64,000 bases of DNA, from assembly GCA_002420115.1 (NCBI GenBank), contig DIHK01000007.1, forward strand, positions 60,136 to 124,135, in the 5' to 3' direction. Below, piece after piece: positions 20,100 through 37,077 of this stretch. Source of the stretch: Nitrospira sp. UBA5698. Lineage in GTDB: Bacteria; Nitrospirota; Nitrospiria; Nitrospirales; Nitrospiraceae. The first letter of the stretch is position 1. Each line of letters begins with the position of its first letter. The notes under the pieces are model-generated. The model saw only the letters and a list, made by a program, of their open reading frames with translations, was not told the DNA's origin and did not search any database. Made by a program: the position numbers and the translations under genes.

Positions 20100-20177
20100 G
20101 GTGGGTGTAGCTCAGTTGGTTAGAGCGCCGGATTGTGGATCCGGAGGTCGCGGGTTCGAAACCCGTCATCCACCCCA
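20100..20177 (+). tRNA. tRNA-His (GUG) with G-1 and encoded CCA
   Basis: Acceptor GTGGGTG/CATCCAC, anticodon arm CCGGA-TTGTGGA-TCCGG, T-loop GTTCGAA, C discriminator. Confidence 0.97.
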
Positions 20178-21388
20178 CTCGCCCTTCTCGGAACTACTGA
20201 ATACTCAAGCTGATCCGAAGAAACCGGCCCCATAGCGGCACCTACCGGTTGCGCGGGGGTTGCAGAATTGGGCAGTCCCACGGGTGTATCCAGCCGATCG
20301 ACGGCTTGCTTGTTCCCACCTGGGATGAGGTGTCCGTAGAGGTCCACGGTCACCTGAATGGAGCTGTGGCCCATCTGATCTTTCACATAGACCGGGCTTT
20401 CCCCGTTCTGCAGCAGGAGCGAGGCGAAGGAGTGACGTAAGTCATGGAACCGGACTTGTCGCACGCCCGCCCCTTTCAGCAGACGGAAGAATTTCAGGCG
20501 GATCCGGTTCTGATTCAGTGGCTGGCCCTTCTCGTTACAGAAGACCCATGGGGGGCCTTCCTTCCATCCACGTGCGGCCGCTTGAAACTGCCGATCAAGC
20601 TGCAGCGTTTCCAAGGTAGCTGTCAGTTCACGAGACAGGTCCACGCGTCGAGATTCGCCGCTTTTGGGCGTAGTCATCTTGCCGTGTGTGAAATTTCGAC
20701 GGACCTCCACGAAACGCCCCGCAAAGTTGATATCCTCCCACTGAAGGGCCAGAAGCTCGCCTTGCCGTAATCCGGTTCGAGCTGCACAGAGGAACGCCGG
20801 ATAGAGAGTCGGCGCCATGGTCTTCGTATAGGCCAAGAAGAGGGCTAGTTCCTGTCCGGTCAAGGGATTGATCGAACGGCGTTTGCTGATCTTCGGCAGG
20901 AACTTGCCGGGCCGCAGGGCCGGATTGACCGTGACGAGATTATCCTCCACGGCGTGACTGAACAAGCTGCTGATTGTGCGGATGATGTTCTGCACGGTCT
21001 TGGCCGACAAGCCCCGTTGCAGACAGCCGACGGCGAACGCCTTCACCTTCTCCCGGGTGATCTGTTGGAGATCCTGTCCGCGAAAGACCGGGAGAACATA
21101 ACGGTCGAAAATCTTTCGGTAGTCGTCGTGCGTGGTATGTTTACGGGTCTGTTCGATCCGTTCAAGAAAGGTCTGGGCATAGGCGTCGAGGGTCACGCTG
21201 GTCTGTGGGCGGTCGAACGCCGCTTGCCCCAGTGCCAGCCGAGCTTGGATCTGTTGCGCTACCTGCTTGGCAGCTTTCCTGCCAGGCTCTCCGGTGCCAA
21301 TCCGCTTGGCCTTGCGCGTGCCTTGATGGTTGATAAAGACCCACCAAGCCCCTTTCCACTCTCGAATCTTCACGCCCATGAGGCCCAT
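20120..21388 (-). CDS. int: Tyrosine recombinase/integrase; C-terminus reads through attL into the tRNA antisense strand
   Basis: ARTGLRQGEL, RFHDLRHSFAS, MGHSSIQVTVDLYGH. Confidence 0.95.
   Translation of the reverse strand: MGLMGVKIREWKGAWWVFINHQGTRKAKRIGTGEPGRKAAKQVAQQIQARLALGQAAFDRPQTSVTLDAYAQTFLERIEQTRKHTTHDDYRKIFDRYVLPVFRGQDLQQITREKVKAFAVGCLQRGLSAKTVQNIIRTISSLFSHAVEDNLVTVNPALRPGKFLPKISKRRSINPLTGQELALFLAYTKTMAPTLYPAFLCAARTGLRQGELLALQWEDINFAGRFVEVRRNFTHGKMTTPKSGESRRVDLSRELTATLETLQLDRQFQAAARGWKEGPPWVFCNEKGQPLNQNRIRLKFFRLLKGAGVRQVRFHDLRHSFASLLLQNGESPVYVKDQMGHSSIQVTVDLYGHLIPGGNKQAVDRLDTPVGLPNSATPAQPVGAAMGPVSSDQLEYSVVPRRASGVDDGFRTRDLRIHNPAL
20155..20181 (+). repeat. attL core, 27 bp TTCGAAACCCGTCATCCACCCCACTCG
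   Basis: Exact copy at 37051-37077; covers the tRNA-His 3' end. Confidence 0.95.
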
Positions 21389-21399
21389 CTTGGGGGATC

Positions 21400-21714
21400 C
21401 TATGCTCGTTCTGTCAAGCGCCGAAGGTTAGGTGCCTGGACTTGCGAAACGACCGCGTCGACCAGTTCACTAAGATTGTCTGTACAGTTAGAGACTCGGT
21501 GTCTGGCAATCCATCGATCGAACTCTTCACGTTTCACAAGAATCTTTCCTTCAATTCGGTAGCAGGGGAGTGGATGGTTTCGATCAACAAGGCGATTCCT
21601 CAACCATCTGACCGAAGTGCACGAATAGGTCGCCAACGCTTGGAGATCGAAATAGCCGGGTGCTGCCTTGTTATCCAAGGATCTCATAGCGAGCGTCGTC
21701 TTGGTGCCCGTCAA
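21400..21714 (-). CDS. Excisionase-like winged-HTH protein
   Basis: YFDLQALATYSCTSVRWLR..LPCYRIEGKILVKREEFDRW; immediately upstream of int; start may be 21687. Confidence 0.8.
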   Translation of the reverse strand: MTGTKTTLAMRSLDNKAAPGYFDLQALATYSCTSVRWLRNRLVDRNHPLPCYRIEGKILVKREEFDRWIARHRVSNCTDNLSELVDAVVSQVQAPNLRRLTERA

Positions 21715-21795
21715 GATTTGGCTGCCTCGTCGATTGTCAGAATGGTCATGATTGTCCTAGAAAGGTACGAGGCTCCCCAGACCATTCGGCAAACA

Positions 21796-24195
21796 TCATG
21801 CTGAAATCCCTCGCACCCGCATGACTGACGGCATTTCGTCGAACACCGCCCGCGCGATCTCGCGCCCGCTCAATTCCACAGTAATGCTGACGGGCCCGCC
21901 GCCGCTCCCGCCGCCCATCGCCTCACGCATAAACGACGCGCCGCGCTTGTTGAGCGGAATCACCGCCTCACTGCTGCCCGCCTCACCGATCATGCCCAAC
22001 GTCGGCCCCGTGACCACGCCGCCGTCGGCAAACGCAAACGCCATCAGCGACCCAATAGCCGCGCCGATGATCGCCACACCCGCCAGAATGGCAATGCCGT
22101 ACGGAATGCCGAAGATCGTCGCCGCCGCCGCCGCCGCGATGGCCGACAGAAACGTCATGAGCGCGGTCCCGATCGACACAAAGAAGGGAATCAGCGTTGC
22201 CGTAAAAAATCCGGTGATCGCTCCAGTGAGCGCCGCAAAGGTGCCCGTGATCCCCGCCGCCGCGCCAGCCCATATGCTCGTCGTCGCCGTAGCCGCCGCC
22301 GCATCGCCCGCCACGATCGTGGCATTCTTCGCCGCATTGATCCCCATAGTCGAGGCCGCCGTGGCCGACACAATGCCCAGCTCTACCGAGGCCTGCAGCG
22401 CCAGCGCCGCCGCCTTCTGAATGCCGAAATTCAAGAGCCCCTGCAGCACGGCCACCTGCGTCGACTTCCAGGCCTGCTCCACAAAATTGCCGCCGTTCAC
22501 CGCCGCATTCGCCAGGCCCGACGTCCAGCTGGTGGTGATCTGCCCGATGGAAAAGCTATTGCTTTGCACGATGGCCTGCATCTGTTGCTCAAAAAACGTC
22601 GGAAACTGCTGAATCGCCTGCCGCCGCCGCGTGTCCATCTGTAGATCCAGATTCATGATGGCCGCCGCCTTCTTTTTCTCATCGAAAATCGTTTCCTCGA
22701 TCACGCGCTTCTGCAGAGCCCCCTCCGCTGCGATCAAATCCATCCGCTTCATACGCGCAATATCCGAGGCCCCGAACAATGCAAACTCAGACTGAAAGAG
22801 CGCCTGCTGCGCCTCGTCGACCACCTTGGCCCGCTCCGCTGCCATCTCAAGCGCGTCGTTGCGATGTTTCCAGGCCTCGGTGGCCTCTTGGACTATCTGA
22901 TAGCCGGCTTCTTCCTCCTGGGTGATCACAGCGAGTTTTTGCTCGGTCTGGAAATACAGATCCAGCTCCTTGGATAGATCTCCCTGAATGCGTTGATGAA
23001 TTTGTAACAGTGTCCGTCCGAGAGCCTCCTGCGCTTTTTCCTCGGACGTGAGCGCCCCAAGTTGGGACTGCGTCATTTGCACGATGACGCGTCCAAGCGC
23101 TTCCTGGGCATTTTGTTCCGCCTTTACCAAAGTGTTCTTGTGGATGAACTGCCCGAGCAATCGGTGGCCGATCTTTTCCTGCTGCTGCCCTAAGGCAATG
23201 GCGCGCTCCTGCACGTGGGTGTCCTGCTGGCCAACAGGCGGAGGGGGAACCGCCGGGGGTGGCAGTTGCGCGGCTCTCAGTGCCGCTGCTGCCGAAGCCA
23301 GCCCAGGCATGAGGCCCGAGAGAATCGGATGGTCGGTTTTGACCTTGTTCAGCTCAGTCGAGAAATTTGAAACCAGACCTGTCAATTTCGTCACGCCGCT
23401 GGTCATCGTCTCGATGCCTTGCGTGACGGGCCCGGCAAAGACCAGGGAAAGGCGTGTCTTCAGCCCATCAACGGCCTTTCCAAGCTTGTCATAGGAATCG
23501 TCCGCTTCTGTCAAGGCATTCATTTGCTCATGGCTGAGCACCAATCCAAATCGCTTCGCGGCCTCACTCGATTCGTCAAGCGCCTTGGATCCACGATTGA
23601 GGACTGGGATCAGTTCTAGCCCCGCCTTGCCAAACAGCTCAACAGCGAGACGCGATTTCTCTGGCCCATCCGGCATTTCCTTAAAGCGGTCCGCGACCGC
23701 TCGGATCGTCGACTCCGTCGATCCCAGCTCGGTGATGGAGATGCCCATCTGATCAAACAGCGCGGCGGCTTTCGTCGCTGGATTTTGGGCATCCACGATC
23801 TGCCTTGAAAGGGTTCGCATCCCCGAGGTGAGTGTTTCTGCCTGAAAATTGTTTTGTGCCATGACCACCGACCAGGATTGCAGGCTCTGCGCATTAATTC
23901 CGGTTCGCTGGCTGAGATGGTCGATTGCCTCCGCCTCTTTCCCCGCCTGGAGGGTTAAGGCCACAGCAGAGGTTGCCGCTGCCGCCACGGCTCCAGCAAG
24001 GACTCCCGCCGCTGCCGCACCGCCCTTTGCCAGGTTCATGAAATTATCAATGGATGTACCGAGGCTGCCGCCGATTGCATGCCCTGCCGATTCTGCGCTC
24101 GCCGTGAACCGATCAAGGTTGCGTTGCACGTTATCGAGCGTCTTCATAAGTGGGTTGGCATCCGCCACGAGTTCCAGTGCAATTCGATTCGCCAT
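21796..24195 (-). CDS. Phage tail tape measure protein, 799 aa
   Basis: LSQRTG..LQ, AVADRFKEMPDGPEKSRLAVELFGKAG, Ala/Gly-rich hydrophobic segment, C-terminal FADGGVVTGPTLGMIGEAGSSEAVIPL; GAAGGAG RBS. Confidence 0.9.
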   Translation of the reverse strand: MANRIALELVADANPLMKTLDNVQRNLDRFTASAESAGHAIGGSLGTSIDNFMNLAKGGAAAAGVLAGAVAAAATSAVALTLQAGKEAEAIDHLSQRTGINAQSLQSWSVVMAQNNFQAETLTSGMRTLSRQIVDAQNPATKAAALFDQMGISITELGSTESTIRAVADRFKEMPDGPEKSRLAVELFGKAGLELIPVLNRGSKALDESSEAAKRFGLVLSHEQMNALTEADDSYDKLGKAVDGLKTRLSLVFAGPVTQGIETMTSGVTKLTGLVSNFSTELNKVKTDHPILSGLMPGLASAAAALRAAQLPPPAVPPPPVGQQDTHVQERAIALGQQQEKIGHRLLGQFIHKNTLVKAEQNAQEALGRVIVQMTQSQLGALTSEEKAQEALGRTLLQIHQRIQGDLSKELDLYFQTEQKLAVITQEEEAGYQIVQEATEAWKHRNDALEMAAERAKVVDEAQQALFQSEFALFGASDIARMKRMDLIAAEGALQKRVIEETIFDEKKKAAAIMNLDLQMDTRRRQAIQQFPTFFEQQMQAIVQSNSFSIGQITTSWTSGLANAAVNGGNFVEQAWKSTQVAVLQGLLNFGIQKAAALALQASVELGIVSATAASTMGINAAKNATIVAGDAAAATATTSIWAGAAAGITGTFAALTGAITGFFTATLIPFFVSIGTALMTFLSAIAAAAAATIFGIPYGIAILAGVAIIGAAIGSLMAFAFADGGVVTGPTLGMIGEAGSSEAVIPLNKRGASFMREAMGGGSGGGPVSITVELSGREIARAVFDEMPSVMRVRGISA

Positions 24196-24212
24196 GATGT
24201 CTCCTTCGCGTA

Positions 24213-24677
24213 CTACGTAAAGAACCGATGGATCCCTGGCAAGTCCGGCTGATTGCCGTCAGGCAATTTCTTCACTCTTGAGTGGGCCACGGGGGACGCG
24301 CCGAGCTCTGCCAGCGCGCGATGATAGGCCGTCCTCGCGGTATCCCGAATACGAACCTCCGGCCGCATGCGGATGACAGTTCCCGCCTCGCCCGTCGTTT
24401 CATAGGTCAGGCCTTTCTCTTGGATAATTCGATCTGCAGTCGTCATCTGTGAAAACGCAGAGACGGCGACGAGTAACATGCCTCCACTGGCAGGACTCAA
24501 AATCGGAGCCAGGCGCTCGACCAACCGATCCCACTCTTCGCTCGCGAGCGTGTCGAGGCTCGAGGGCTTCTCAATTTCTCCAGCCGTAAACGGCTCACCG
24601 GTATCCGATACCGGCCGATGGCCCGGGTTACCGGAAAGCAGCCTTAACCGCTCGTCTTTGGGTTTGCGGCCCTTCAT
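24213..24677 (-). CDS. Terminase small subunit, P27 family
   Basis: MKGRKPK..LLSGNPGHRP, LDTLASEEWDRL, ELGASPVAHSR (start refined to ATG 24677). Confidence 0.88.
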   Translation of the reverse strand: MKGRKPKDERLRLLSGNPGHRPVSDTGEPFTAGEIEKPSSLDTLASEEWDRLVERLAPILSPASGGMLLVAVSAFSQMTTADRIIQEKGLTYETTGEAGTVIRMRPEVRIRDTARTAYHRALAELGASPVAHSRVKKLPDGNQPDLPGIHRFFT

Positions 24678-25051
24678 AAATCTTCCATCACGTTCGGAAT
24701 GGTTGGGGTGCATCTCAGTGCATGACACGCGACTAAATACGGTTCTTTCCAATCTCTCGACGCCAACTTAGAACCTGGCATTCCCCACCGACGCGCCAGC
24801 TGTTCGATCTTGACCCGATACGAGAACGCCTGCGCGGCTAACTCAATGAGAGGTCCGTCATGAAGGAAGATGCCGTCTGGCTGCGCTTGCCGTTCGGCTA
24901 CGAGCCGGTTCCATTCGCGTAAGGCATCTGCATCAAGTCCAGCGGGCATGGGAGGAGTTCCCTTCATCGGTCCGACAATTTCGAAAGGATGAGCGACCTT
25001 TCTTGAAGTTTCATGCTCGGCTTGTGGACCTTTACTCATGATCACCTTCAT
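24674..25051 (-). CDS. Divergent second P27-type TerS paralog
   Basis: PAGLDADALREWNRLVA aligns with PSSLDTLASEEWDRLVE; ATGA overlap with terS. Confidence 0.55.
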   Translation of the reverse strand: MKVIMSKGPQAEHETSRKVAHPFEIVGPMKGTPPMPAGLDADALREWNRLVAERQAQPDGIFLHDGPLIELAAQAFSYRVKIEQLARRWGMPGSKLASRDWKEPYLVACHALRCTPTIPNVMEDL

Positions 25052-25061
25052 CCATCACAGA

Positions 25062-25160
25062 GGGGGAAAATATTCCCAATTTCGCGGCGGCATACGGTGA
25101 GGGAAGACGGTCGGTCTACGCTGAAAACCTGTAGAGATTTCACCCCCCTACCCCCTCCTT
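25062..25160 (-). other. Putative cos packaging site (HK97-like)
   Basis: Between HNH and terS genes: GGGGGTAGGGGGGTGAAATCTCTACAG..GACCGACCGTCTTCC..CGCGAAATT, resembling cos regions of HNH-terS phages; exact nick site not determinable. Confidence 0.65.
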
Positions 25161-25492
25161 CTTTCTGAACCTGTCTTGATATTGTGACATCGCGTGCATA
25201 GAGGCTGAAGGTTACACTCATCATCCGTGCCACCATTCACCTTCGGCCTTATGTGGTCCACCAGCACAGCCCTGCTCCGCATACACAAACGACAGAATGG
25301 GAATCGTTTCAGATACTCAGCCCTCAGCTTTCTCCATTGCCGATCGTACCCTCTTGCCGTCGAGCTCCCACGCCGATCGTCATAGAGCCGTGGTTTCTCC
25401 GCTTGTGGCACCACAGGCCGCGCATGCTTCGCACAAGGGCCCAGCACCGGACATCCAGCAACGGGGCAGGGTCTCTTCGGCAGCATCGGCAT
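25148..25492 (-). CDS. Terminase-associated HNH endonuclease (HK97 gp74-like)
   Basis: RGSSTARGYDRQWRKLR..PFCRLC..VDHIRP..GG..NLQPLCTRCHNIKT; AGGAG RBS before ATG 25492. Confidence 0.9.
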   Translation of the reverse strand: MPMLPKRPCPVAGCPVLGPCAKHARPVVPQAEKPRLYDDRRGSSTARGYDRQWRKLRAEYLKRFPFCRLCMRSRAVLVDHIRPKVNGGTDDECNLQPLCTRCHNIKTGSERRRG

Positions 25493-25628
25493 CAGGCCAC
25501 TCCTTGTCGTATTCCGGCGGCAGTCGCAGCTAAACCCCTCGGGTTGAGATCTGCGACTCCGGGCGGACGTGTACGGTAACGAGTCGCACACGCTCTCCAT
25601 GCTGACTTGTGACCATTCATTGCATATC

Positions 25629-25895
25629 CATCGTTGCAACTCCCCCTCTTATAAAGAGGGGGGTTGCAATCAACGATGCCCTGCAACGATCACCGTTGCA
25701 GGGAAACGGTTTGTGAATCAATGAGTTATAGAGAGTTGCAACGCTGCAACGATCTGCAACGATGAAAAGGCTGCAACGATGCGCTGCAACGATGAAATTC
25801 ATAAGCCATAGTTGCAACGAAAACCCTTTCCTATGGCGATGTTTCAGCGATTGTGCAACGATGCAACGCTCTGCAACGATATTCCTGCAACGATG
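25629..25895. repeat. Iteron-like array, putative origin: 11 direct + 2 inverted TGCAACG, GC hairpin 25634-25669, IHF consensus 25716-25728
   Basis: Counted by eye; AATCAATGAGTTA matches WATCAANNNNTTR; lies immediately 3' of the helicase-like gene. Confidence 0.75.
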
Positions 25896-25912
25896 GCTGA
25901 ACGGGGATGAAC

Positions 25913-27151
25913 TCATCGGTTCACACAAGTCCATTTCGTCTCGCGTCCACTGCCGATCGAGTGCCACTTCTGAGCATTCTGGCGCGACAGGGTACTCTTA
26001 ATCGTGGCCACGGGCGCCGCCAAGGCATCGGCAATCTCTTTGGCCGAATAAACGCCGCCGTCCTTTTCGAGAAAGTTCCGGATCCGGCTGGCAATAGGGA
26101 GCCCTCGCTCGAGTTCAAGCGTCTGGCTCAGGTCGCACGCTTCGTACGCCATTGCCGTGTTCGTCGCATTCTGGCGCACGCGCAAGCCGATGGGCGGATG
26201 TAGCCGGCTCAAGTTCGACTTACGATTGAAGAGCCCGAGCACGGATTCATCGGCGCCAACGTCCTGCTCTTTCTTCAGCTCCCAAGTCGACCGGGCAAAG
26301 TTCTTATAGAACACCGAGCCATAAATGCCGGCCTCTTGTTGCTGCTCGTTCATCTTGGGAATATGAGCCAGCACCAGAGCACCCCGGTTCAGCATCCGCA
26401 GGGCCCGAAACGCTTTCGTGGCCGCTTCAGCACTTGCATCGCCACAGGTTGCAGCAGCCAGACTATCCAGGATGATGAAATCAATGCGCTCAAGTTGAAC
26501 GAGCCGGAGCAAGGTCGGGAGAATGTTCCAGATTGGTTCGTGATGGGTTTGATAAATCAGCTCGGCAGACTTCAGGGCAGGGTGGCAGGTGGCGATCGCC
26601 TCACGGCGCCGCGCGTGCACATCCAGCGTATCCTCGTAATCCAGGTACAACACTCGACCTCTCACGGCACTCAGGCCGGCCACCGATTCCCCACTCGAGA
26701 CGAGCATACCCATCAAGAGTGCCAAAGAGCTTTTCCCGAGCCCGCCATCGCCATACAGAATGGTCACCTTGCGAGAGAACACAATCGGATTAAGCTGATA
26801 GCTGAGAGTTTCGACCGGCGTCTCGGCGTTCAGCCGATGGGGTGGCTCGCCCTCTCGGAAGCGGCGGAGAACAAGCACAGCGGTCGCTTCGATCAACCGA
26901 GTCCAAGCAGGCAGCTCCAGCCGGCCATCATATTCATGAACTTTCTTGGCGACGCGGCTTTTGTCACCATTGAGATTGACCCTCGCACCTTCACACAGAG
27001 TCTTGTCTCCGTCGAGCACCGTGAACTCTGAAACAATCCCCTGCGATTGTCTGGTGAGGTATTCCACGAGAAAACGAATGTTGCTTTCCGGCCAATGCAC
27101 AGAGAACCCATTGCCCAAGTCGGAAATCTCAGGATCGCGGGGGGACATCAA
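25913..27151 (-). CDS. RepA/DnaB-like AAA helicase with C-terminal HTH
   Basis: Walker A GDGGLGKS, YLDYED, Walker B IILDSL, LAHIPK, GSVF. Confidence 0.85.
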   Translation of the reverse strand: MMSPRDPEISDLGNGFSVHWPESNIRFLVEYLTRQSQGIVSEFTVLDGDKTLCEGARVNLNGDKSRVAKKVHEYDGRLELPAWTRLIEATAVLVLRRFREGEPPHRLNAETPVETLSYQLNPIVFSRKVTILYGDGGLGKSSLALLMGMLVSSGESVAGLSAVRGRVLYLDYEDTLDVHARRREAIATCHPALKSAELIYQTHHEPIWNILPTLLRLVQLERIDFIILDSLAAATCGDASAEAATKAFRALRMLNRGALVLAHIPKMNEQQQEAGIYGSVFYKNFARSTWELKKEQDVGADESVLGLFNRKSNLSRLHPPIGLRVRQNATNTAMAYEACDLSQTLELERGLPIASRIRNFLEKDGGVYSAKEIADALAAPVATIKSTLSRQNAQKWHSIGSGRETKWTCVNR

Positions 27152-27524: not shown

Positions 27525-27527
27525 AAC

Positions 27528-27911: not shown

Positions 27912-28001
27912 TCCACCACACGTTTCTAACTGGCAATCGTCAGTGCACGCCCGTCCTCGGATGCGGCTAGCTTGCACCGCATCCGAGCTCCTGCGCAGTC
28001 A

Positions 28002-29192: not shown

Positions 29193-29211
29193 CCATCCCT
29201 CCCTATCTGCA

Positions 29212-29433: not shown

Positions 29434-29661
29434 GATTATCACCTCATGTTTTTATTGTGTTTACTCCAGCTATTAAACAAAGTCATTGAGGCTGAATTAA
29501 AATAAATGCAGCCTACATAGTGAGGCTGTCGACTGAACAGAGTCTGGCGACTTTGTTCGATGCACAGCGCCAAGGCGGACGTTGGCGCTGCGTAATGGGC
29601 TGTAATGGAGCTGAGAGGGGTGAGCTAAGCTACAAAGAAGTGGAAGCCGACTTGACGATGC

Positions 29662-30243
29662 TCAGGTCTGGAGTCGTTTGAGTATCTCAGCCCGTGTGAG
29701 GTACCGACTTTTGGAAGAATGTTGCTGTGGTCTTTTACGCTTCCACAACTCTCCCTTGAGTTCATCAATCAGCCGGTCGAGCTCTAGGTCTTGCTTGGCC
29801 TTGACTCGAGCGCTATGGCGCTCAACCGACTCTGGTTTGCCAAGCCACCACTTTAAGAAAAACGGCTTCGCGACCGGCCCATACATCTTCTTGAGCCAGG
29901 TTTCGTCAGCCGCTGTAAGATTCACAACACTGGTAATATAAAATAGCTTCCAAATCTTGAAATACACCTTAGCTCTCGACAAGGAAATTTTATATTCCTT
30001 ACTGATATGTCGTGCGACAGCATGCTTTGTTGGAAGGGGTTCGTTTTGCCTTAGCATGTTCAGCACGTATTGAGTTATTGCCTTGAAGATCTGAAGGTCA
30101 GCAACTTTTGCCCGTACCCCTGGGCGCACCTCTGGATGCACATACTCAAAAGCGGCTCTTGCCGCGTCGAGGAACTTCCCTTGAGCGTCGAAAGATTTCG
30201 CTGCTTGCTTCAAGAGCTTAATGGGCTCAATGTGCCGCGGCAT
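29662..30243 (-). CDS. Basic hypothetical protein, visibly AT-richer
   Basis: 193-aa ORF with GGAG RBS. Confidence 0.7.
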   Translation of the reverse strand: MPRHIEPIKLLKQAAKSFDAQGKFLDAARAAFEYVHPEVRPGVRAKVADLQIFKAITQYVLNMLRQNEPLPTKHAVARHISKEYKISLSRAKVYFKIWKLFYITSVVNLTAADETWLKKMYGPVAKPFFLKWWLGKPESVERHSARVKAKQDLELDRLIDELKGELWKRKRPQQHSSKSRYLTRAEILKRLQT

Positions 30244-30393
30244 TTCAACTCCGATTCTTTTAAGTTTGGTGTGAGCGATAGCGCAGTACTACTCTATGTG
30301 GCCAATAGTCTCCTCGCAATCGCTTCCATTTTATGCGTCGAAAAGATCAACCGCTAGACCGCTGACAGCGAGCGGCCTAGCGCCTTCAGGCTC

Positions 30394-30579
30394 TCACCTC
30401 TTGCCTGTCCTAGAAAGCTTGATCGCCTCGGCCGCAGTAATTCGGCCCGCCACCACTTCTTTCATGATCCTCGACACTAAAGCAGCCTTGTGATGATTCG
30501 GCATCCCCTCAGCGGCGTCCAACCAATCTCTCTTCCGGTCGATTTGGCTTGTAAGTATGATCCGCGTTTGCGATTTCAT
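30394..30579 (-). CDS. Small hypothetical protein
   Basis: Overlaps the upstream stop; AAGGAA RBS. Confidence 0.5.
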   Translation of the reverse strand: MKSQTRIILTSQIDRKRDWLDAAEGMPNHHKAALVSRIMKEVVAGRITAAEAIKLSRTGKR

Positions 30580-30821
30580 AGCGTTCCTTTTTTGTTGGAC
30601 ACAAGCAACTGCCGGCAGAGCATCAGAACGGCCTGCGTGTGCAAGACGTACAAGCCCATATGAATGCCGTGACTCTTATACGTTGGCGGCTTCTCGTCCT
30701 CCATCCGCTCAATGACCTTCTGCACTGTCACAAGGCCCAACTCCAGCGCGCGGAGTGCTTCCTCGAATCCTTTCACTTCATCTTCACTGATGATGGTCCG
30801 TACAGTCACGAGGTTGACCAT
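30576..30821 (-). CDS. Small hypothetical protein
   Basis: Co-oriented, RBS-like AGGAAAGG upstream. Confidence 0.6.
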   Translation of the reverse strand: MVNLVTVRTIISEDEVKGFEEALRALELGLVTVQKVIERMEDEKPPTYKSHGIHMGLYVLHTQAVLMLCRQLLVSNKKGTL

Positions 30822-30896
30822 GATGAGTTTCCTTTCTTGCTCTGATGGGCGCCTAGTTATCGCGAGCAGTCAGCCTACTACGAGCGTTCACTATCC

Positions 30897-31253
30897 CTAG
30901 GAGCACAGTTCATCTTCAACAACGGGGTAATGACCAGCCCGCATCCCAAAGCAGCGCCGACGGGCCTGATAACGGTCAAGGTCACCAGTGGCCTCAGAGA
31001 AACCATCACCTAATTGGTTTAGTAGATGGTCCAGGAACAAGAGACCCTTGTGCTTGGTGGGGAAGGGGCCGAATCGTCTAGGACGGAGCCCGGTCATCTC
31101 CACGCGCAAAAACCACACCGTCCGACCGAATTGATCTCTGCTTCGCTTGAACCATTCCTCTCGAGGTTTCACCTCCATGATCTCAATCTTTTCTCGCTTC
31201 TTGCGTGGCGCAACCGCCTTGGCTTTGCCCGTATCGGTCAATGATTGTCCCAT
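30897..31253 (-). CDS. Hypothetical protein
   Basis: AGGAGG RBS before ATG. Confidence 0.65.
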   Translation of the reverse strand: MGQSLTDTGKAKAVAPRKKREKIEIMEVKPREEWFKRSRDQFGRTVWFLRVEMTGLRPRRFGPFPTKHKGLLFLDHLLNQLGDGFSEATGDLDRYQARRRCFGMRAGHYPVVEDELCS

Positions 31254-31378
31254 CGTGCGTCCTCCTGTTCAGGTTCGTGTGTTGGTCGTTCAGATCGGCT
31301 GCATTTCAGTTCCTCAACCCAATAACTTGTCAGCCTCCTCATCCGACCGTTCAGGCTGAATTGCAGGTGTCTCATGGC

Positions 31379-31475
31379 CTATCCACGCTATCCACAAACA
31401 TCCACAGCCCAGATTCAAGATTCCTGATTTACGATCTACGATCCAAGATTCAAGATAAAGATCTAAGATTTAAGA
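31379..31475. repeat. Three DnaA-box-like ATCCAC units followed by a 7-bp-period GAT array; candidate second origin
   Basis: CTATCCACG 31379, CTATCCACA 31388, ACATCCACA 31398; GAT at 31412,19,26,33,40,47,54, then 60, 67. Confidence 0.65.
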
Positions 31476-31512
31476 GTTCCTACGCCGGTCTGAACGCTCG
31501 TCGAACGAGTGT

Positions 31513-32046
31513 TCAGATAACCATGCGAGCCACCTCCTGACGGTCGTTCGACACCGGTCGGAACTCCCGTTCCAACAAGTCTGGAAGCCCCTGTGCAAAT
31601 GGTGACAGTCCGCTCTTAAGACAATGCTTCCTGGCCAGCAGGAGAAATTCGTTCATCAGCTCCGGGTTATCCGGAAGATTGCGAACCCGCGCAAGCACTG
31701 CCTTCTGAACATTCTTGCTGTCGGGCTGCTGATACCGGAGCGCGTTTCGGATGAGGAGGAGGTTCGTTTTCTCATCGAATCGAATGAATCCCTCCTCCTC
31801 GAGTTTCAACAGCATGTCCTTGACCCGCCGGAGCGGCCAGGCCATATCCGCAGCGACGTATTCCGGCGGCAACACAAAAAAGCCTTCCAACGTGCGGTGC
31901 TTCGTCGTCAGAAGGTGCAACGCGAAGAGCCTCTGCGAGTCTGGCCAGGTGGCGACCTTCTCATCCGACCAAAAGTGACAAGCTATGCGGTAATACCTCG
32001 GCACATCGGGGCGCTTTGGTTTATTGGTTTGCTCGTCGTCCAACAT
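31513..32046 (-). CDS. Phage replication initiator / replisome-organiser N-terminal winged-HTH protein
   Basis: RYYRIACHFWSDEKV..LFALHLLT..H..LEGFFVLP..YVAADM..LEEEGFIRFDE..LLIRNALRYQ. Confidence 0.75.
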   Translation of the reverse strand: MLDDEQTNKPKRPDVPRYYRIACHFWSDEKVATWPDSQRLFALHLLTTKHRTLEGFFVLPPEYVAADMAWPLRRVKDMLLKLEEEGFIRFDEKTNLLLIRNALRYQQPDSKNVQKAVLARVRNLPDNPELMNEFLLLARKHCLKSGLSPFAQGLPDLLEREFRPVSNDRQEVARMVI

Positions 32047-32066
32047 CGAGACCTCTCCTCATACAC

Positions 32067-32477
32067 TTAGTGAGCCGTCGATCGACTCATGGCACGGCCA
32101 GTCCTTCGCGTACTAGGCATCTGTAACGGATCAATCGGATCGGAGTTGCTGAATAATTCATGAGTGAGCCGAACATAGGTGACGAGCTCGCTCACGTCGT
32201 CAAACTCACTTCTCAATTCGTCAACGATGAGTTGCACAATGCTGGCATCGATATGTGATCGGCTTTCTGCAGCCATGAACAACAGATCCAACCGCTTCTT
32301 ACAGTTCCCGAGAATGTACAGGGCGAGGTCACCATCTTCTGCAAACCATTTGAGGCCGAATGGTTTCTGATCAGTCACGTCCCTGATCTGTCCATCTTGA
32401 TCGCGATGGAGAACTCTTGCCTGTAACGCCAACCTCGGCTCGGTTTCCTCAGTTTCGGTCGTCGTCTTGGTTTTCAC
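32067..32477 (-). CDS. Hypothetical protein
   Basis: AGGAGG RBS, GTG start. Confidence 0.6.
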   Translation of the reverse strand: MKTKTTTETEETEPRLALQARVLHRDQDGQIRDVTDQKPFGLKWFAEDGDLALYILGNCKKRLDLLFMAAESRSHIDASIVQLIVDELRSEFDDVSELVTYVRLTHELFSNSDPIDPLQMPSTRRTGRAMSRSTAH

Positions 32478-32532
32478 AGGACCTCCTGGTTTAGAAGTTC
32501 AGAGCAAACGGTGCACCGGAGATACGTCACGT

Positions 32533-32679
32533 TCACGATCGCAGTTCCTTTCGTTGCTTAAATTCCTTCTCCAGCAGATTACGGATGAACCCACTGGCCG
32601 AAATCCCCTCCTTTCGCAAGGCATCCAATTTGACCTTCATTCCCCTCGGCACGCTGATCAGTATCTTCACCATCGCCAT
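32533..32679 (-). CDS. Ribbon-helix-helix (Arc/CopG-like) regulator, 48 aa (absent from ORF track)
   Basis: MAMVKILISVPRGMKVKLDALRKEGISASGFIRNLLEKEF; GGAGG RBS. Confidence 0.8.
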   Translation of the reverse strand: MAMVKILISVPRGMKVKLDALRKEGISASGFIRNLLEKEFKQRKELRS

Positions 32680-32702
32680 AGCCTCACCTCCAATGACTAT
32701 AA

Positions 32703-32769
32703 ATATAGATTTCTATATATTCATATGTCAAGGCATATGATTGACTATATCGAGCGTGGCCAGTACAGT
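32703..32769. promoter_or_regulatory. Divergent sigma70 promoters with two palindromic operators
   Basis: Rightward TTGACT(32741)-N17-TACAGT; leftward TTGACA(32731)-N18-TATATT; inverted repeats ATATAGA-TT-TCTATAT and TCATATG-N6-CATATGA. Confidence 0.75.
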
Positions 32770-32780
32770 ACCGAGACGCA

Positions 32781-32960
32781 ATGGCGACGAAGGGCAGTAA
32801 CTCAACGGAAAAGCGAAGGAAAGTGTTTGGCTTGAGCCTCGATCGACAGCTCATGCTCGATATCCAGCACTTAGCACTCGACCAAGACCGCTACGTGAAT
32901 GAGATGATTGAAGAAGCTGCGAAGGACCTGCTGAAGAAGTACCGAGAGAAGGCGAAATAG
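32781..32960 (+). CDS. Ribbon-helix-helix regulator, 59 aa, probable element repressor (absent from ORF track)
   Basis: RRKVFGLSLDRQLMLDIQHLALDQDRYVNEMIEEAAKDLLKKY: beta-helix-helix pattern. Confidence 0.8.
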   Translation: MATKGSNSTEKRRKVFGLSLDRQLMLDIQHLALDQDRYVNEMIEEAAKDLLKKYREKAK

Positions 32961-33062
32961 ATACCTTCAGCTTATGAGCTGACAAGAATCAGGCGGCACG
33001 TGCCGAGTGCCTTCATTGCGATCCATCCCCAAGACCCAGCAGGAAGAATTACGAGGCACACG

Positions 33063-33521
33063 ATGAAAAGCTCGATCACCTTTGGACGGCTGGGCACCCA
33101 CAGCCTACTGGCTTTCTTCCTTATCGCCTTTACTCTGGGCTGTACACGCCTCACACCGCAAGAACGGGAACACTACGCTTCTCGTGTCTATGATATCCCT
33201 CATGACCGCGTGTTCGAAGCAGTCAAAGAGCGGGTGCGGCAATACCCGATGGGTCTACAAGAGACTGATCTACAGCAAGGCCTTGTGAAAAGTCGGATTG
33301 GTGGGACCACGCCGGGCATCGGAGCGACCGTCGGCTATCAAATCACCGTCATGACCACGGCGGAAGGCCAGCGGACGAGGGTGGTTCCAACCTGGCAGAT
33401 GAATATTTCATCAGAACCAACCAAAACCCACTTGCTTCCTGTCACGATCGACGATCGGCCGTTGCTCTATTTGGAGTTCTTCGACGCACTCGATGAACAG
33501 CTCGAGAAAGCACGTCAGTGA
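33063..33521 (+). CDS. Lipoprotein of unknown function
   Basis: Signal II FTLGC; start refined to ATG 33063. Confidence 0.75.
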   Translation: MKSSITFGRLGTHSLLAFFLIAFTLGCTRLTPQEREHYASRVYDIPHDRVFEAVKERVRQYPMGLQETDLQQGLVKSRIGGTTPGIGATVGYQITVMTTAEGQRTRVVPTWQMNISSEPTKTHLLPVTIDDRPLLYLEFFDALDEQLEKARQ

Positions 33522-33534
33522 GGAAAAGGCACCA

Positions 33535-33966
33535 ATGAGGTATGCCGTCGCATTACTGTTGCTCCTCGCGCTGTCCGCGCCTTCACTGGCAGGCGAAAAG
33601 GGTAAGTTGGTCAGCCTTCTTGCCGATTATGCTGATTTCAAACATCGCGTCCAAGACATCAGGACAACCCGGCAGAGCGGTTACGCAAGCGACAGTAAAG
33701 AACTACTAGAACTCAGGAAAGAGATTCTCGCTGCACTCCAAGATGTAGACGACTATCAGACCAAGCTGAATGCCCGAACAAGAGACGATCCGGCCAATGA
33801 AGTGCCTCTCGCGCTCACGTACGCCTACAGCGCAATGTTTCATATCGTTTCAATGGAATTAGATCGAAACCTCTATCGATCCAATTTACCTCTTAAGCTG
33901 TCAGAAAAATATGCTGACATCTGGGGGATGGTTGATCCCTTAATCCCTGCCTTCTCTGCCCCGTAG
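33535..33966 (+). CDS. Secreted helical hypothetical protein
   Basis: Signal MRYAVALLLLLALSAPSLA. Confidence 0.75.
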   Translation: MRYAVALLLLLALSAPSLAGEKGKLVSLLADYADFKHRVQDIRTTRQSGYASDSKELLELRKEILAALQDVDDYQTKLNARTRDDPANEVPLALTYAYSAMFHIVSMELDRNLYRSNLPLKLSEKYADIWGMVDPLIPAFSAP

Positions 33967-34290
33967 AAACAACTCAAGCACTAAAATTCGAGCTCTTCGC
34001 AAGTCTGCCTATTATGCAGGCATCAGTGTGCTGATTGCGCCGAGGTTGTGGGGTTGCGACTGTCCTGCCAGGATTTTCACTTCTCTGCATGGCCGAACTC
34101 TTGATATTGCCGGATTTTCCAGGTTTCCGCCTCGTCAGATTGTGACTTCGAATCACGGTCATGACCGGTCGTGGTCTTGCTTGCCCATTTTTTGAGGTAA
34201 CCCCAATGGGGAATTCGCTGAGCCTCCTGCACCGCTAGGCTTCACTCAGACAGCCACTGATCACCAGAAACCTGTGAAGGAGTCGCAACC

Positions 34291-34695
34291 ATGCACACGC
34301 TGAACAAGAGGTTTGTGCACCGGATCTATTCACGGTTCCTTGTACACTTTCCGATGATGTATCTGGGGCAGACCGTCACCGGCCAAGGGATTGTCCGGGA
34401 GTTATCCCTGGTGGGGTGTCAGGCCCTCAGCAACGCTCCTGTGATTGAGGGCACGTCCCTGAGCGTAAGACTCGCTCTGCCGAGTTACGAGAAGCCGCTG
34501 GTTATCGAGCGAGCCACCGTGAAATGGGTTAAGGGATTGGAGTGTGGACTAGCCTTTGACCACCATGACGAGCGGGAGCGAGTGCGACTCCGGCAGGTGC
34601 TAAATGAGCTGCTCGCTCGTAGACGCTACAACGGCTTGACGACGGAAGCCCCTCACACTGACACGCCCAATGCACCTCTGACCGCTTGCCCCTGA
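34291..34695 (+). CDS. Single-domain PilZ protein
   Basis: RIYSR (RxxxR) and ELSLVG; VKW..G.AF. Confidence 0.8.
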   Translation: MHTLNKRFVHRIYSRFLVHFPMMYLGQTVTGQGIVRELSLVGCQALSNAPVIEGTSLSVRLALPSYEKPLVIERATVKWVKGLECGLAFDHHDERERVRLRQVLNELLARRRYNGLTTEAPHTDTPNAPLTACP

Positions 34696-34792
34696 GCCCC
34701 CCTCTTTCGATGTACCTCGTTCAGTTCTGGTGGGAATCGGACGTCCTGATACGGTTATCTCAGACACGATCACGACACAGGAGGACACCACA

Positions 34793-35032
34793 ATGACCTG
34801 TACACGATGTCAAGGACTCATGCTGGAAGAGCAGATAATCGACATGGAAGCAGCGTATGGCGAGATGTGGAGCCTCAGCTCCCGCTGCGTTAATTGTGGC
34901 CATCGACATGATGCGGTGATCCAGCAACACCACCAAGCCTACTTGCGGCCAGTGGCTCTCTCCCAGACAGTCGCCCGGTCAGAATCCGTGGATCTGTCAT
35001 GGGATTCGGAACAGGAACCACTGGCAGCCTAG
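34793..35032 (+). CDS. Small zinc-ribbon protein
   Basis: MTCTRCQGLM..RCVNCG; AGGAGG RBS; ends LAA. Confidence 0.8.
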   Translation: MTCTRCQGLMLEEQIIDMEAAYGEMWSLSSRCVNCGHRHDAVIQQHHQAYLRPVALSQTVARSESVDLSWDSEQEPLAA

Positions 35033-35080
35033 CGGTAAACACCCAGCCCACAGCTTTTCGAGCACGAAAGGAACACGGTC

Positions 35081-35443
35081 ATGAAGCCATCCACGATCCT
35101 GGTCATTGAGGATCAGGCATCCGTCCGTAAGCTCCTGGCGCAGGTTCTCGAAGAGGCTGGGTACCAGGTCTATCAGGCGGTGGATGGCCGACAAGGGCTC
35201 GCCCAGTTCCACGCCCAGCCCGTCGATCTGGTCCTCACGGATCTAGAGATGCCTGAAATGAACGGGTTGGACCTGATCTTGGAACTGACCCGCACGTTCT
35301 TGGATGTCAAAGTCATTGTCATGAGTGGCCACTCGGCAGGGAAGCTACAGACGGCCCGACTCCTTGGGGCACGGCAAACCTTTGTAAAGCCATTCAACCT
35401 TCCCGAGTTGCTTCGCGCCATTGAGTACGAACTCCTCCACTAG
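35081..35443 (+). CDS. Single-domain response regulator
   Basis: ILVIED, TDLEMP..G, MSG, KPF. Confidence 0.92.
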   Translation: MKPSTILVIEDQASVRKLLAQVLEEAGYQVYQAVDGRQGLAQFHAQPVDLVLTDLEMPEMNGLDLILELTRTFLDVKVIVMSGHSAGKLQTARLLGARQTFVKPFNLPELLRAIEYELLH

Positions 35444-35561
35444 ACGCAGGGAGCTATCCCACGGACACACATTTAGCGGGTTTCCATCCGATGTCCCTCG
35501 GCGTCTAAGAGCATCCAACAAATTGATTGACTCGGACAGTTCGCATTGATAGCATTTTGTC

Positions 35562-35891
35562 ATGCGCAGGATGGCCGCCTTTCTGGTGTTCTTGCTGCTC
35601 GGTCTCACCTTCAACGCGTACGCCTGCATCCTGCCTTTACAAACCGTAGCCCAGACGGATTGTTCCTCTGACACACAGGAGCAATCACGGCAGACATGCG
35701 ACGCGTTTCTTGAGATAGGGCCACAGTCACAGCTTTCTCTAAACCATGCCCTCAGCTCATTCACGTTTGAGTCACCAGTACCGAGTCTGCCGTTTGAGAC
35801 GGTCCATTCTATTTCTGCGCCGACACCATCGCCTTACCACGCCGTCTTTCCCATTCATCTCTCAATCCCAACTACCGTTTTGAGGATTTGA
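35562..35891 (+). CDS. Small exported Cys-containing protein upstream of the copper storage gene
   Basis: Signal peptide; TTGACT(35527)-N17-TAGCAT promoter 6 nt before ATG; ends VLRI. Confidence 0.65.
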   Translation: MRRMAAFLVFLLLGLTFNAYACILPLQTVAQTDCSSDTQEQSRQTCDAFLEIGPQSQLSLNHALSSFTFESPVPSLPFETVHSISAPTPSPYHAVFPIHLSIPTTVLRI

Positions 35892-35960
35892 TACCCTCCT
35901 TCAGGTTTCTGTGCACCAACAGCAACGTGGGCGTGAACAGCAATCCACGAAGGGGGACTT

Positions 35961-36461
35961 ATGTCTGACAACAACACGATAGGCAGACGATCATTTCTAT
36001 CGACCGGCGTATCTCTGGTGGCTGCAGGTGTGTCGTTCATGACTTTGCCCAAGGCTTATGCTTCGTCCGGCGGCGAGTCAGACGGCCAGCCGATGTTGGC
36101 TCCAGGAGGGCATCACATGGACGAGGAGATGCAAAAGTGTATTCAGCTCTGCCGAGACTGCCATGCGATGTGCACTCAAACGATTGCACATTGTTTGAAG
36201 CTGGGAGGCCGCCATGCGGCACCCGAACACATCCGCTTATTCCTGGACTGTGCACAGATATGCACGACCACTGTCGATTACATGCTTCGGGGCTCCGCGG
36301 TTCATGACCGAGTTTGTCGCCTCTGCGCTGACCTGTGTATGCAGTGCGGAAAGGATTGTGAACAGATGGCAGGAGACGATCAGATGGTAAAACAGTGCAT
36401 TGAAACGTGTCGAAAGTGTGCAGAGTCTTGTGAGCGTATGGCATCACAAGCGGCAGCATAG
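35961..36461 (+). CDS. Tat-exported four-helix-bundle copper storage protein (Csp/DUF326)
   Basis: IGRRSFL Tat motif; CxxxCxxC repeats (CIQLCRDCHAMC, CRLCADLCMQC, CIETCRKCAESC). Confidence 0.9.
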   Translation: MSDNNTIGRRSFLSTGVSLVAAGVSFMTLPKAYASSGGESDGQPMLAPGGHHMDEEMQKCIQLCRDCHAMCTQTIAHCLKLGGRHAAPEHIRLFLDCAQICTTTVDYMLRGSAVHDRVCRLCADLCMQCGKDCEQMAGDDQMVKQCIETCRKCAESCERMASQAAA

Positions 36462-37050
36462 CCGTCCAGCGGCTATCTCGCTCGTGCTTAGTCCGCGTGG
36501 GCTGTGGCAAAGCCACTGCCTGCGCGGGCCAGGTCGGTCCCGCATCTGTGCATTGCCTCATTGGTGCCAATCTGACACCAAAATGCCAAGGCACACCATG
36601 ACCAGCGATGAAGAGCTGTCACAGATCCTCTTCGTTTTTTGATGATTTGTCTTGTTGACTGTCCTCAGGTAGGTGTAGGCCGAGACTCCTAATCAGCGGG
36701 GTCAACTCAGAATATTGCCCACTTTATGCTACCAGCAAAGAGCAAACCAGCCCCACCAGCGCCAACCGTGCCACCTTGCTGAGATTTTGTTTCTTGTGGG
36801 GTTAAGGTTGTCTGAGGTAGAGCGATCTGACGCACCACGCAGCAAGAAACGGCAGGGGGCGATATGCCGATGCCAGGAGTGAGGGGTGACACAGGCGTTC
36901 ATGACTCCTCTTCTTCGGACTGAAATGAATGAGGGGAGTCGGATGTCTGGTTGCAACTGGTTGCAGACTTGCTGATTTCTTGCTCAGTTTTTCCGTGATT
37001 TGCCGAGCTATCCTGTTGATCTTGTTGAGGTAGCGATGTGTCCGGTGCAA

Positions 37051-37077
37051 TTCGAAACCCGTCATCCACCCCACTCG
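37051..37077 (+). repeat. attR core (duplicate of tRNA-His 3' end)
   Basis: Identical to 20155-20181. Confidence 0.95.

Follow-up and report, generated by a model that had tools for sequence, protein, structure and literature searches.

We analysed 64,000 nucleotides (nt) of DNA from Nitrospira sp. UBA5698 (NCBI GenBank assembly GCA_002420115.1, contig DIHK01000007.1, positions 60,136 to 124,135 of the forward strand; this whole stretch is called the window, and coordinates refer to it unless another locus is named). The window holds a 16.9-kb island in a Nitrospira-type host, which is probably an integrated, helper-dependent, cos-packaging satellite that forms chimeric tails and broadly resembles the phage-inducible chromosomal islands (PICIs). 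Its only virion structural gene encodes a tape measure protein (TMP). An earlier note on this DNA, made from the sequence alone, had proposed a cos-type satellite with its own TMP; the proposal is supported by a gene junction shared among relatives, by the selection acting on the genes and by a shared non-coding element, and we infer packaging and the steps around it.

The island belongs to a previously undescribed family, which is a member of none of the systems with which it was compared. Until 2025, to our knowledge, the manipulation of virions by satellites was believed to be confined to heads and packaging. Satellite TMPs were then published in 2025-2026 (in PLE11, EPIPs and some capsid-forming PICIs, cf-PICIs), so that the island represents a new family and not a new principle. 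Judging from sequence, what appears to mark the family out is a tyrosine integrase, a cassette of HNH endonuclease, cos and two TerS genes, a TMP that is the sole structural gene in the window, the lack of a chaperone gene, putative siphophage helpers, and a different phylum.

Borders of the island and its tape measure protein

The integration target is a tRNA-His (GTG) gene (20101-20177, plus strand), the sole tRNA reported by ARAGORN (Rfam tRNA 69.7 bits). The att core is a 27-bp exact direct repeat, TTCGAAACCCGTCATCCACCCCACTCG, with copies at 20155-20181 and 37051-37077, the left one made up of the final 23 bases of tRNA-His and the next 4 bases. Shuffles of the window gave 0 matches to the repeat, even with 3 mismatches permitted, in line with the intact att pair in tRNA-His that the earlier note had described. 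From repeat start to repeat start the island measures 16,896 bp, and it has the size (~10-20 kb), site-specific integrase and flanking att repeats expected of satellites in the broad sense. The features at its borders and in its left-hand part, on which the argument rests, are as follows (aa, amino acids).

20155-20181, no strand: attL, the 27-bp core at the 3′ end of tRNA-His
20120-21388, minus strand: tyrosine integrase, 422 aa (PF00589 (Phage_integrase) 8.6e-28; phrog_1 7e-69)
21400-21714, minus strand: Xis-like HTH_17 protein (HTH_17 24.8 bits, Pfam cut-off 27; phrog_66 excisionase 7e-4)
21796-24195, minus strand: TMP, 799 aa (10 PHROG tape-measure families, best 8e-25; none in Pfam)
24213-24677, minus strand: TerS_b, P27-family small terminase, 154 aa (PF05119 (Terminase_4) 5.8e-14; phrog_83 2e-23)
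24674-25039, minus strand: TerS_a, short divergent TerS paralog, 121 aa (no library match; hhalign against the TerS_b family, probability 96.9%, E 1.5e-10)
~25062-25140, minus strand: candidate cos site, 78-nt non-coding element (placed by conservation; G-rich tract GGGGGTAGGGGGG, then a conserved core ending AAATTGG)
25148-25492, minus strand: HNH endonuclease, ~114 aa (PF01844 3.3e-10; phrog_144 1.5e-27)
37051-37077, no strand: attR, the second copy of the 27-bp core

All credible genes between 20120 and 32679 lie on the minus strand. As transcribed, their order is: a small ribbon-helix-helix (RHH) gene, an uncharacterized gene (32067-32477), a DnaD-like gene, several genes without assignment, two HTH_3 genes, u225, two conserved genes without assignment and the AAA_25 helicase gene, followed by iterons and a palindrome, HNH, a 108-bp spacer, TerS_a, TerS_b, TMP, the Xis-like gene and the integrase. 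The near-single leftward operon of the earlier note thus holds for 20120-32679, but not for the right-hand part at 33000-36461, which is plus-strand cargo. Integrase and excisionase were identified as the note had stated, the first firmly (phrog_1 7e-69), the second by its phrog_66 match (7e-4) and a sub-cut-off HTH_17 match.

That the 799-aa protein is a genuine phage TMP follows, decisively, from the genomic position of its homologs in phages. We found ~84 full-length homologs of roughly 700-910 aa, and in more than 20 complete phage modules they lie between the chaperones G/T and the tail-tip genes, in the order TerL, portal, protease, capsid, head-closure, Neck1, tube, chaperones G/T, TMP, two large tail-tip genes and beta-helix fibres. 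Together with the PHROG matches (to 8e-25), this canonical position bears out the identification made in the note. The island protein qualifies as a tail TMP, for which a family-type N-terminal domain, a long helical middle and a hydrophobic C-terminal region are expected; its length and hydrophobic segment are retained, as is a conserved C-terminal motif with invariant G725, G726, G740, E743, A744, P747 and L748. TMPs of cultured phages in GenBank/INPHARED match its N-terminal domain alone, at ~30% identity, and no cultured phage relative was found among the INPHARED TMPs.

We scanned all open reading frames (ORFs) of at least 90 aa, plus several smaller ones, against Pfam and PHROGs, and found no capsid, portal, TerL, tube, chaperone, baseplate, tail-tip or lysis gene in the island. 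A tblastn search of the window with 18 structural proteins of L245, a related complete phage (such handles denote loci retrieved for comparison), returned TMP as the sole match. The only island ORFs longer than 200 aa are the integrase, TMP, the helicase and u225, which is predicted to be helical. The absence of capsid, portal, TerL, tube, baseplate and lysis genes that the earlier note had reported is, therefore, upheld by both searches, and no hypothetical protein of the window proved to be a capsid or TerL; as in other satellites, virion-building and lysis genes are missing, with TMP as the only structural gene. A hidden capsid was also sought by tblastn with the capsid, 215-aa coiled-coil and tail-completion proteins of the satellite L001, which found nothing, and u225 is unrelated to the 215-aa coiled-coil family (hhalign probability 0.9%).

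Comparison of the TMP with its relatives revealed a mosaic. Over residues 531-799 it shares 99% identity with its counterpart in phage L245, and the underlying 1.18 kb (nt 21787-22964) are 92.7% identical, the similarity stopping at the TMP stop codon. By halves, identity to L245 is 95% in the C-terminal half, whereas the N-terminal half has its closest matches in satellites (95% and 81%) and in complete phage L252 (76%); the N-terminal and middle parts are ~55% identical to L245. A satellite-specific N-terminal half was considered and rejected on account of the 76% identity to L252. In the C-terminal third, compared with L245, dN was 0.003 and dS 0.164 (dN/dS 0.02), and over the whole gene dN/dS against relatives was 0.10-0.31 (all such ratios by the Nei-Gojobori method). 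In a neighbour-joining tree, satellite TMPs were polyphyletic and interleaved with phage TMPs. The mosaic of phage alleles and the low dN/dS suggest that satellite and phage TMP genes recombine and that the product stays functional. Relaxed selection on TMP, which the note had named as grounds for abandoning the proposal, is contradicted by these ratios, both in the C-terminal third and overall.

The mosaic might also be read as that of an interference weapon or decoy, where the satellite TMP joins helper tail initiation complexes and poisons or mis-measures tails, thereby protecting the host population. We consider this unlikely. A C-terminal third near phage identity combined with N-terminal and middle parts at ~55% fits a decoy, no chaperone gene stands beside TMP, and satellites are known to strike at helper tail assembly: PLE11 does so through Rta (PMC12987554), and Tai systems on PICIs are reported to do likewise (PMC11364771). 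However, both halves of the island TMP resemble ordinary phage alleles (76% to L252 for the N-terminal half), the length, C-terminal motif and hydrophobic segment are kept, and dN/dS is low along the whole protein. Moreover, some sister elements add Neck1, capsid or chaperone genes, which points to virion building rather than sabotage.

Packaging cassette and relatives of the island

Upstream of TMP in the direction of transcription lies a packaging cassette in the order HNH, a conserved 78-nt element, TerS_a and TerS_b. The genes are tightly arranged, the ATG of TerS_b overlapping the TerS_a stop codon and TMP starting 17 bp past TerS_b. TerS_b scored 52.7 bits against a PF05119 cut-off of 24.7, placing it in the P27 family, and TerS_a was assigned by profile-profile comparison only. 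The earlier note had listed an HNH gene and two TerS genes; the former is secured by its PF01844 and phrog_144 matches and the latter by PF05119 for TerS_b, with the second TerS being a divergent paralog by hhalign. TerS_b is 56-60% identical to TerS of phages L249 and L250, and the HNH protein is 54% identical to that of L249; dN/dS was 0.11 for TerS_b and 0.26 for TerS_a. TerS_a formed only 16 clusters among 5.8 billion proteins. It was found in satellites in every readable context, and none of the phage loci examined had it. Like Rpp of Gram-negative PICIs, it could plausibly bias terminase choice in favour of the satellite.

No other DNA of the family is as conserved as the spacer that separates HNH from TerS_a, with 85-94% identity among satellites, compared with 64-80% for coding DNA. 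A pattern made from its invariant positions matched exactly two contigs in the viral collection, L249 and L250, both of them complete-phage modules in which the 78-nt element lies between HNH and TerS, upstream of TerL, portal and protease. The island's element is 83-85% identical to these two copies, and the HNH and TerS proteins flanking it are 54-60% identical. Contig L250 begins within the G-rich tract GGGGGTAGGGGGG, as a cohesive end would predict, suggesting that the element is probably cos. The cos-like site anticipated by the note is, thus, placed at ~25062-25140 by conservation, in an element shared with two complete phages of the HNH-TerS-TerL type. A structured RNA was considered for the element and rejected (no Rfam match; no folding signal, z 0.99). 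TerS_b, TerS_a, HNH and the 78-nt element that it has in common with L249 and L250 would provide packaging determinants matched to a helper, as is typical of satellites.

The earlier note had called for a search for the order HNH-cos-TerS-TerS-TMP-xis-int in other genomes. Such a search found at least 11 distinct elements of the same architecture: the window island, an X10 variant contig (TMP homolog P0001), L001, L003, L005, L006, L085, L088, L092, L251 and L254, the last with TMP deleted. The order (HNH)-TerS_a-TerS_b-TMP-xis-int recurs in L001/L002, L003, L005, L006, L085, L088, L092, L251 and the X10 variant, and three more TerS_a homologs are on contigs that match in length those of TMP homologs P0002, P0013 and P0019. 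TMPs of the relatives are 44-94% identical to that of the window, and all are on Nitrospira-type contigs. Five tRNA genes (tRNA-His, -Glu, -Lys, -Phe and -Thr) serve the family as targets, with two integrase families.

The TerS_b-TMP junction itself is shared. A homologous spacer of 15-18 nt with a GAAGGAG-type ribosome-binding site separates the two genes in the window, L254, L003, L088 and L251, unlike in phages, where TMP begins within the last bases of the chaperone gene. A homologous spacer despite differing TMP bodies suggests that the arrangement arose once and then diversified. The note had allowed that the junction might be a unique deletion among relatives that are full prophages; it is instead common to at least 11 diverged elements, though full phages are among the closest TMP relatives.

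These comparisons bear on a further possibility, namely that the island is a cryptic, defective HK97-like prophage, which lost the genes from TerL to the chaperones, the tail-tip and the lysis genes, and is now decaying or domesticated and not transmissible. We hold this to be quite unlikely. Its gene order does equal that of a phage late operon from which an inner stretch is missing (HNH-cos-TerS ... TMP), the C-terminal third of TMP is 99% identical to a phage TMP, gene loss continues in L254, and encapsidated copies were not found in viral contigs. A defective prophage, however, would not be expected to share its junction and spacer with elements whose TMPs are 44-73% identical to the window's, nor to come with two integrase families and five tRNA targets. 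All genes tested, including int, TerS_a and the helicase, are under purifying selection; TerS_a was encountered in satellites only and the iteron replicon is conserved among satellites (phage early regions being mostly unsampled); and conservation of the non-coding candidate cos element exceeds that of the neighbouring genes. Furthermore, in two unrelated metagenomes the island was 5-10 times less deep than both chromosomal flanks, and one metagenome contig joins 20181 directly to 37391, indicating that not all members of the population carry the island.

We also considered an integrative plasmid or mobilisable island that gained phage genes by chance from a co-resident prophage. An autonomous replicon and an integrase are present, and the 1.18-kb tract records recent recombination with a phage. 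Conjugation or mobilisation genes, however, were found in none of the ORFs scanned against Pfam and PHROGs, the packaging cassette and TMP form the conserved core where replication genes differ (L003 and L251 are without the AAA_25 helicase), and a shared cos would serve no purpose other than phage packaging, all of which makes this origin highly improbable.

Members of the family differ in the virion genes they carry. In L001 (9547-9951) and L085 (3652-4050) a tail-completion/Neck1 homolog (phrog_5) lies between TerS and TMP; its phage homolog sits between the genes for head closure and tube. L001 (4119-5824), L092 (6715-8419) and L251 (5431-7121) encode an HK97-fold major capsid protein (PF05065 to 7e-61), which is short (342-374 aa, against 411-472 aa in phages) and is preceded, in the slot of the window's u225, by a coiled-coil protein of 212-217 aa; portal, protease and TerL were not found in these three loci. 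The absence of head genes, therefore, describes the window member and not the family.

A close relative is L254 (7479-12683; Nitrospira sp. GCA_046351035.1, 114-kb contig), with 83% nt identity from TerS to the helicase. It carries the same PilZ and response-regulator cargo (87% nt identity) and a different xis/int pair. Behind it lies a second, tandem island (DUF3854-AAA_25, RHH, two further integrases) that extends to tRNA-Thr. A separate and distant TMP-bearing island of 10,172 bp, L093 (4670-14887), is inserted at tRNA-Thr between intact 46-bp att repeats, and was the only relative with both ends within the retrieved locus when att pairs were sought. Its genes encode a DnaD-like protein, an HTH-type TerS (phrog_57), an 837-aa TMP, a tail assembly chaperone (phrog_344) and an integrase. 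Among the complete phages, L247 (1-1128) has a TerL of 1282 aa with Hom_end and LAGLIDADG matches, which probably contains an intein.

Known satellites and possible transmission of the island

The PLE set is built of Vibrio/ICP1-specific genes, such as a RepA_N replication protein, TcaP and Rta. PLE11 replaces the TMP, chaperone and BhuB of its helper, and its tails are 10 nm shorter (Mathur, Boyd et al., Nature 2026, PMC12987554). In addition it encodes Rta, a block on the helper TMP, and its helper, a lytic myovirus, has a TMP to which that of the PLE is only 20% identical; further Vibrio elements, and some of the cf-PICIs, have putative tmp genes (PMC12987554). Like the island, PLE11 is without most tail genes and has its own TMP, which in PLE11 takes the place of the helper's. 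PLE11, however, adds a chaperone, BhuB and Rta, whereas the island has TMP alone, with no chaperone or BhuB-like gene found and no recognisable Rta; the island TMP, unlike that of the PLE, reaches 99% identity to TMPs of candidate-helper siphophages over part of its sequence and is of the same length. The two belong to different phyla and share no genes in the libraries used, the PLE having been compared by description, and the resemblance is functional only. The earlier note had called own-TMP satellites rare and reported for Vibrio PLEs; PLE11 agrees with that, but EPIPs and some cf-PICIs are also published, which makes the principle less new than the note implied.

EPIPs of Mycolicibacterium aichiense (~11 kb) encode TerS, capsid, scaffold, adaptors and TMP, and their authors propose TMP-mediated tail hijacking (Qian et al., bioRxiv 2025, PMC12822802). 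They resemble the island in being small, in having TerS and TMP, and in lacking tail tube and lysis genes. The island is nonetheless not an EPIP: its integrase is of the tyrosine and not the serine type, and it has none of the EPIP head genes (major capsid, scaffold, head-tail adaptor, stopper). Closer to EPIPs in gene content are L001, L092 and L251, with capsid and coiled-coil proteins, and L001 and L085, with the tail-completion protein.

Cos-type PICIs (SaPIbov5 and Gram-negative PICIs with Rpp) span 10-17 kb and comprise an integrase, a divergent switch, iterons by rep and a helper-derived cos site; the HNH and TerL machinery on which they depend is the helper's, with the small protein Rpp re-targeting the terminase. 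Classical PICIs carry no tail gene, and the island departs from them by its TMP. It also differs in that int and xis are at the far end of a long operon and not beside the repressor, and no homologs of AlpA, Stl, Ppi or Cpm were recognised in it. The cf-PICIs are similar to the island as satellites that take over part of virion construction. They bring, however, a full head module (capsid, portal, protease, connectors, TerS, TerL) and steal tails, whereas the island would supply a tail component; it has no such module, and its sisters have only the capsid and coiled-coil protein. Scans of all ORFs against Pfam and PHROGs gave no matches to the P4-like genes (Psu, Delta, Sid, alpha primase-helicase), which sets the island apart from P4-like satellites. 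In the literature searched, no paper mentioned Nitrospira together with phage satellites.

Among phages, the uncultured HK97-like HNH-cos siphophages (L245-L253, L165-L185, L249, L250) have an HNH, cos element, P27 TerS and TMP homologous to those of the island. They add TerL, portal, protease, capsid, closure, neck, tube, chaperones G/T, tail tip and fibres, while the island, compared with the phage late regions that were read, adds TerS_a, its own replicon, an integrase and cargo.

A satellite cycle consistent with these data would run as follows. A helper of the HK97-like siphophage family would relieve the RHH/HTH switch, and the island would excise and then replicate from its iterons. Helper TerL together with satellite HNH and TerS would cut the satellite cos, TerS_a possibly favouring the satellite, and the DNA would be packaged into helper-made heads. 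Helper chaperones would load the satellite TMP onto the helper tail-tip complex, and helper tube protein would polymerise over it. The outcome would be chimeric tails, as demonstrated experimentally for Vibrio PLE11. Contigs of candidate helper phages reach 38-40 kb, making the island ~0.42 of the helper genome, a ratio that fits the relative capacity of T=4 and T=7 shells ((4/7)^1.5 = 0.43).

Several observations weigh against the satellite reading. Excision, replication, packaging, helper dependence and TMP incorporation are all deduced from sequence and comparison. No attP junction was seen in the assembler contigs examined. The island was not found among viral contigs, where the TMP scan returned complete phages only; likewise, scans of these contigs with helicase peptides and with the origin palindrome gave no satellite copy. 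The window holds no helper prophage, and source-sample contigs matching the TMP-TerS region (at least 80% identity) included no second TMP allele or close helper TMP. With no tail chaperone gene in the island, everything hinges on helper compatibility. No gene for capsid-size redirection was identified in it, and a 16.9-kb unit would need small capsids or multimer packaging. TMP is 799 aa long in both the window and L245, the closest phage relative, so that no altered tail length is to be expected of this pair (between other satellites and phages, TMPs differ by 27-118 residues). In L254 TMP is deleted internally, with the first ~41 nt and last ~93 nt remaining (10773-10908), suggesting that TMP is the typical structural gene of the family but dispensable for chromosomal persistence, and in L006 and L088 the TMP ORFs are split, possibly by assembly errors.

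Sequencing runs gave some hints of co-occurring elements. The source-sample runs contained one extra item, a 155-nt low-depth second cos-like contig. The groundwater runs holding L249 contain further cos-like contigs, and in a sister run some fragments of low depth were similar to int, to the DnaD-like gene and to the RHH switch, a co-occurrence signal that is only suggestive.

What a satellite would gain from its own TMP is a matter for guesswork by analogy, best with PLE11 and its Rta: a private TMP may pay by escaping TMP-targeted blocks, be they the satellite's own anti-tail interference or DNA-entry exclusion in recipients. In a more far-reaching form, which we find doubtful though possible, satellites would 're-key' DNA delivery, in that a private TMP, updated by recombination with helper alleles, would pass TMP-targeted blocks, whether the satellite's own action on helper tails or superinfection exclusion, and the family would record stepwise capture of virion genes. 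The capture series would then lead from TMP (window) to the addition of the tail-completion gene (L001, L085), of the capsid and coiled-coil genes (L001, L092, L251) and of a chaperone (L093). If re-keying did occur, helper lysogens would be the most useful recipients.

If the satellite reading is right, the family would extend the tail remodelling of PLE11 to a distant phylum, to siphophage helpers and to nitrifiers, which are important for the nitrogen cycle. The window island represents the minimal case, having TMP as the only structural gene. Relatives in which TMP is deleted, or capsid, neck or chaperone genes are added, and the exchange of TMP alleles amount to natural 'experiments', which open the question of what a private tape measure brings the satellite to comparative and metagenomic study. 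Satellite finders keyed on absent structural genes may misclass such elements as defective prophages.

Replication, regulation, cargo and flanking DNA

The remaining features of the island, to the right of the packaging cassette, are the following.

25630-25894, no strand: replication origin, 11 iterons TGCAACG(A/C)T and palindrome CCCCCTCTTTATAAGAGGGGG
25913-27151, minus strand: AAA_25 (RepA/DnaB-like) replicative helicase, 412 aa (PF13481 1.6e-16; phrog_906, phrog_6012)
27129-27524, minus strand: u131, conserved core gene (no Pfam/PHROG match)
27528-27905, minus strand: u149, conserved core gene (no Pfam/PHROG match; single-sequence AlphaFold2 (AF2) model uninformative, pLDDT 53)
28309-28986, minus strand: u225, helical protein in a variable slot, 225 aa (AF2 model with three helices, one of ~100 residues, pLDDT 73)
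28998-29442, minus strand: two tandem HTH_3 (Cro/CI-type) regulators (PF01381 2.9e-6 and 5.6e-8)
31513-32046, minus strand: DnaD-like replication organiser or helicase loader (phrog_1701 2.5e-20)
32067-32477, minus strand: uncharacterized gene, second in order of transcription
32533-32679, minus strand, and 32781-32960, plus strand: divergent RHH pair, a putative switch (weak RHH matches)
33000-36461, plus strand: cargo (two putative secreted/lipoproteins, PilZ, zinc-ribbon, response-regulator receiver, DUF326 Cys-rich protein)

The 11 iterons compare with 1.35 expected in the whole window and, with the AAA_25 match (1.6e-16), substantiate the helicase with iteron array of the earlier note. 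The helicase is 89% identical to that of L001 (dN/dS 0.04-0.09), and the iteron array and palindrome are kept downstream of the helicase gene in L001, L085 and L005. The island, then, has a replication module of its own with the origin beside the rep gene, as satellites do. The library scans recognised no primase domain in it. DnaD-like homologs are present in L092 and L093. Between the DnaD-like gene and the next ORF, at 31411-31475, there are about nine AGATTCA-like heptamers, which could be a second protein-binding array with a role in replication or regulation.

Back-to-back promoter-like sites lie between the RHH genes (32731-32702 on the minus strand, 11/12 positions; 32741-32769 on the plus strand). 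The RHH pair is conserved in L001, L003 and L005, the HTH_3 pair in L001 and L003, and homologs of u131 and u149 occur in L001, L003, L005, L006, L085 and L251. The protein u225, the product of the largest unassigned ORF, is predicted to be all-helical and gave no fold or PDB match; it may speculatively be put forward as a capsid-size or scaffold factor. In the otherwise near-identical variants of runs X7 and X10, the slot 27906-28886 is swapped for unrelated sequence, with the breakpoint exactly upstream of the u149 start codon.

The cargo may tune c-di-GMP or two-component signalling. It includes a response-regulator receiver gene (35081-35443) and a PilZ gene (34291-34695), and a further PilZ gene is found in the chromosome just past attR (37849-38499). 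No defence system was recognised in the cargo, where PADLOC gave generic receiver-domain matches only.

At the left end, the integrase (dN/dS ~0.10 against L085 and L006) has a frame that extends 59 nt into the tRNA-His gene (20120-20178), so that its C-terminal residues would differ between the integrated and the excised form. The Xis-like protein has homologs at the same position in L003, L006, L085 and L254; they are 89-108 aa long, and in the listed ORF the true start is probably farther downstream than the first start codon. At the right end, just outside attR, contigs of two other metagenomes skip the segment 37078-37391, joining 37076 to 37312/37316 or 20181 to 37391. The segment contains, on its minus strand, an ORF of 79 aa without family match, and may be the remnant of an earlier insertion at the tRNA-His hotspot.

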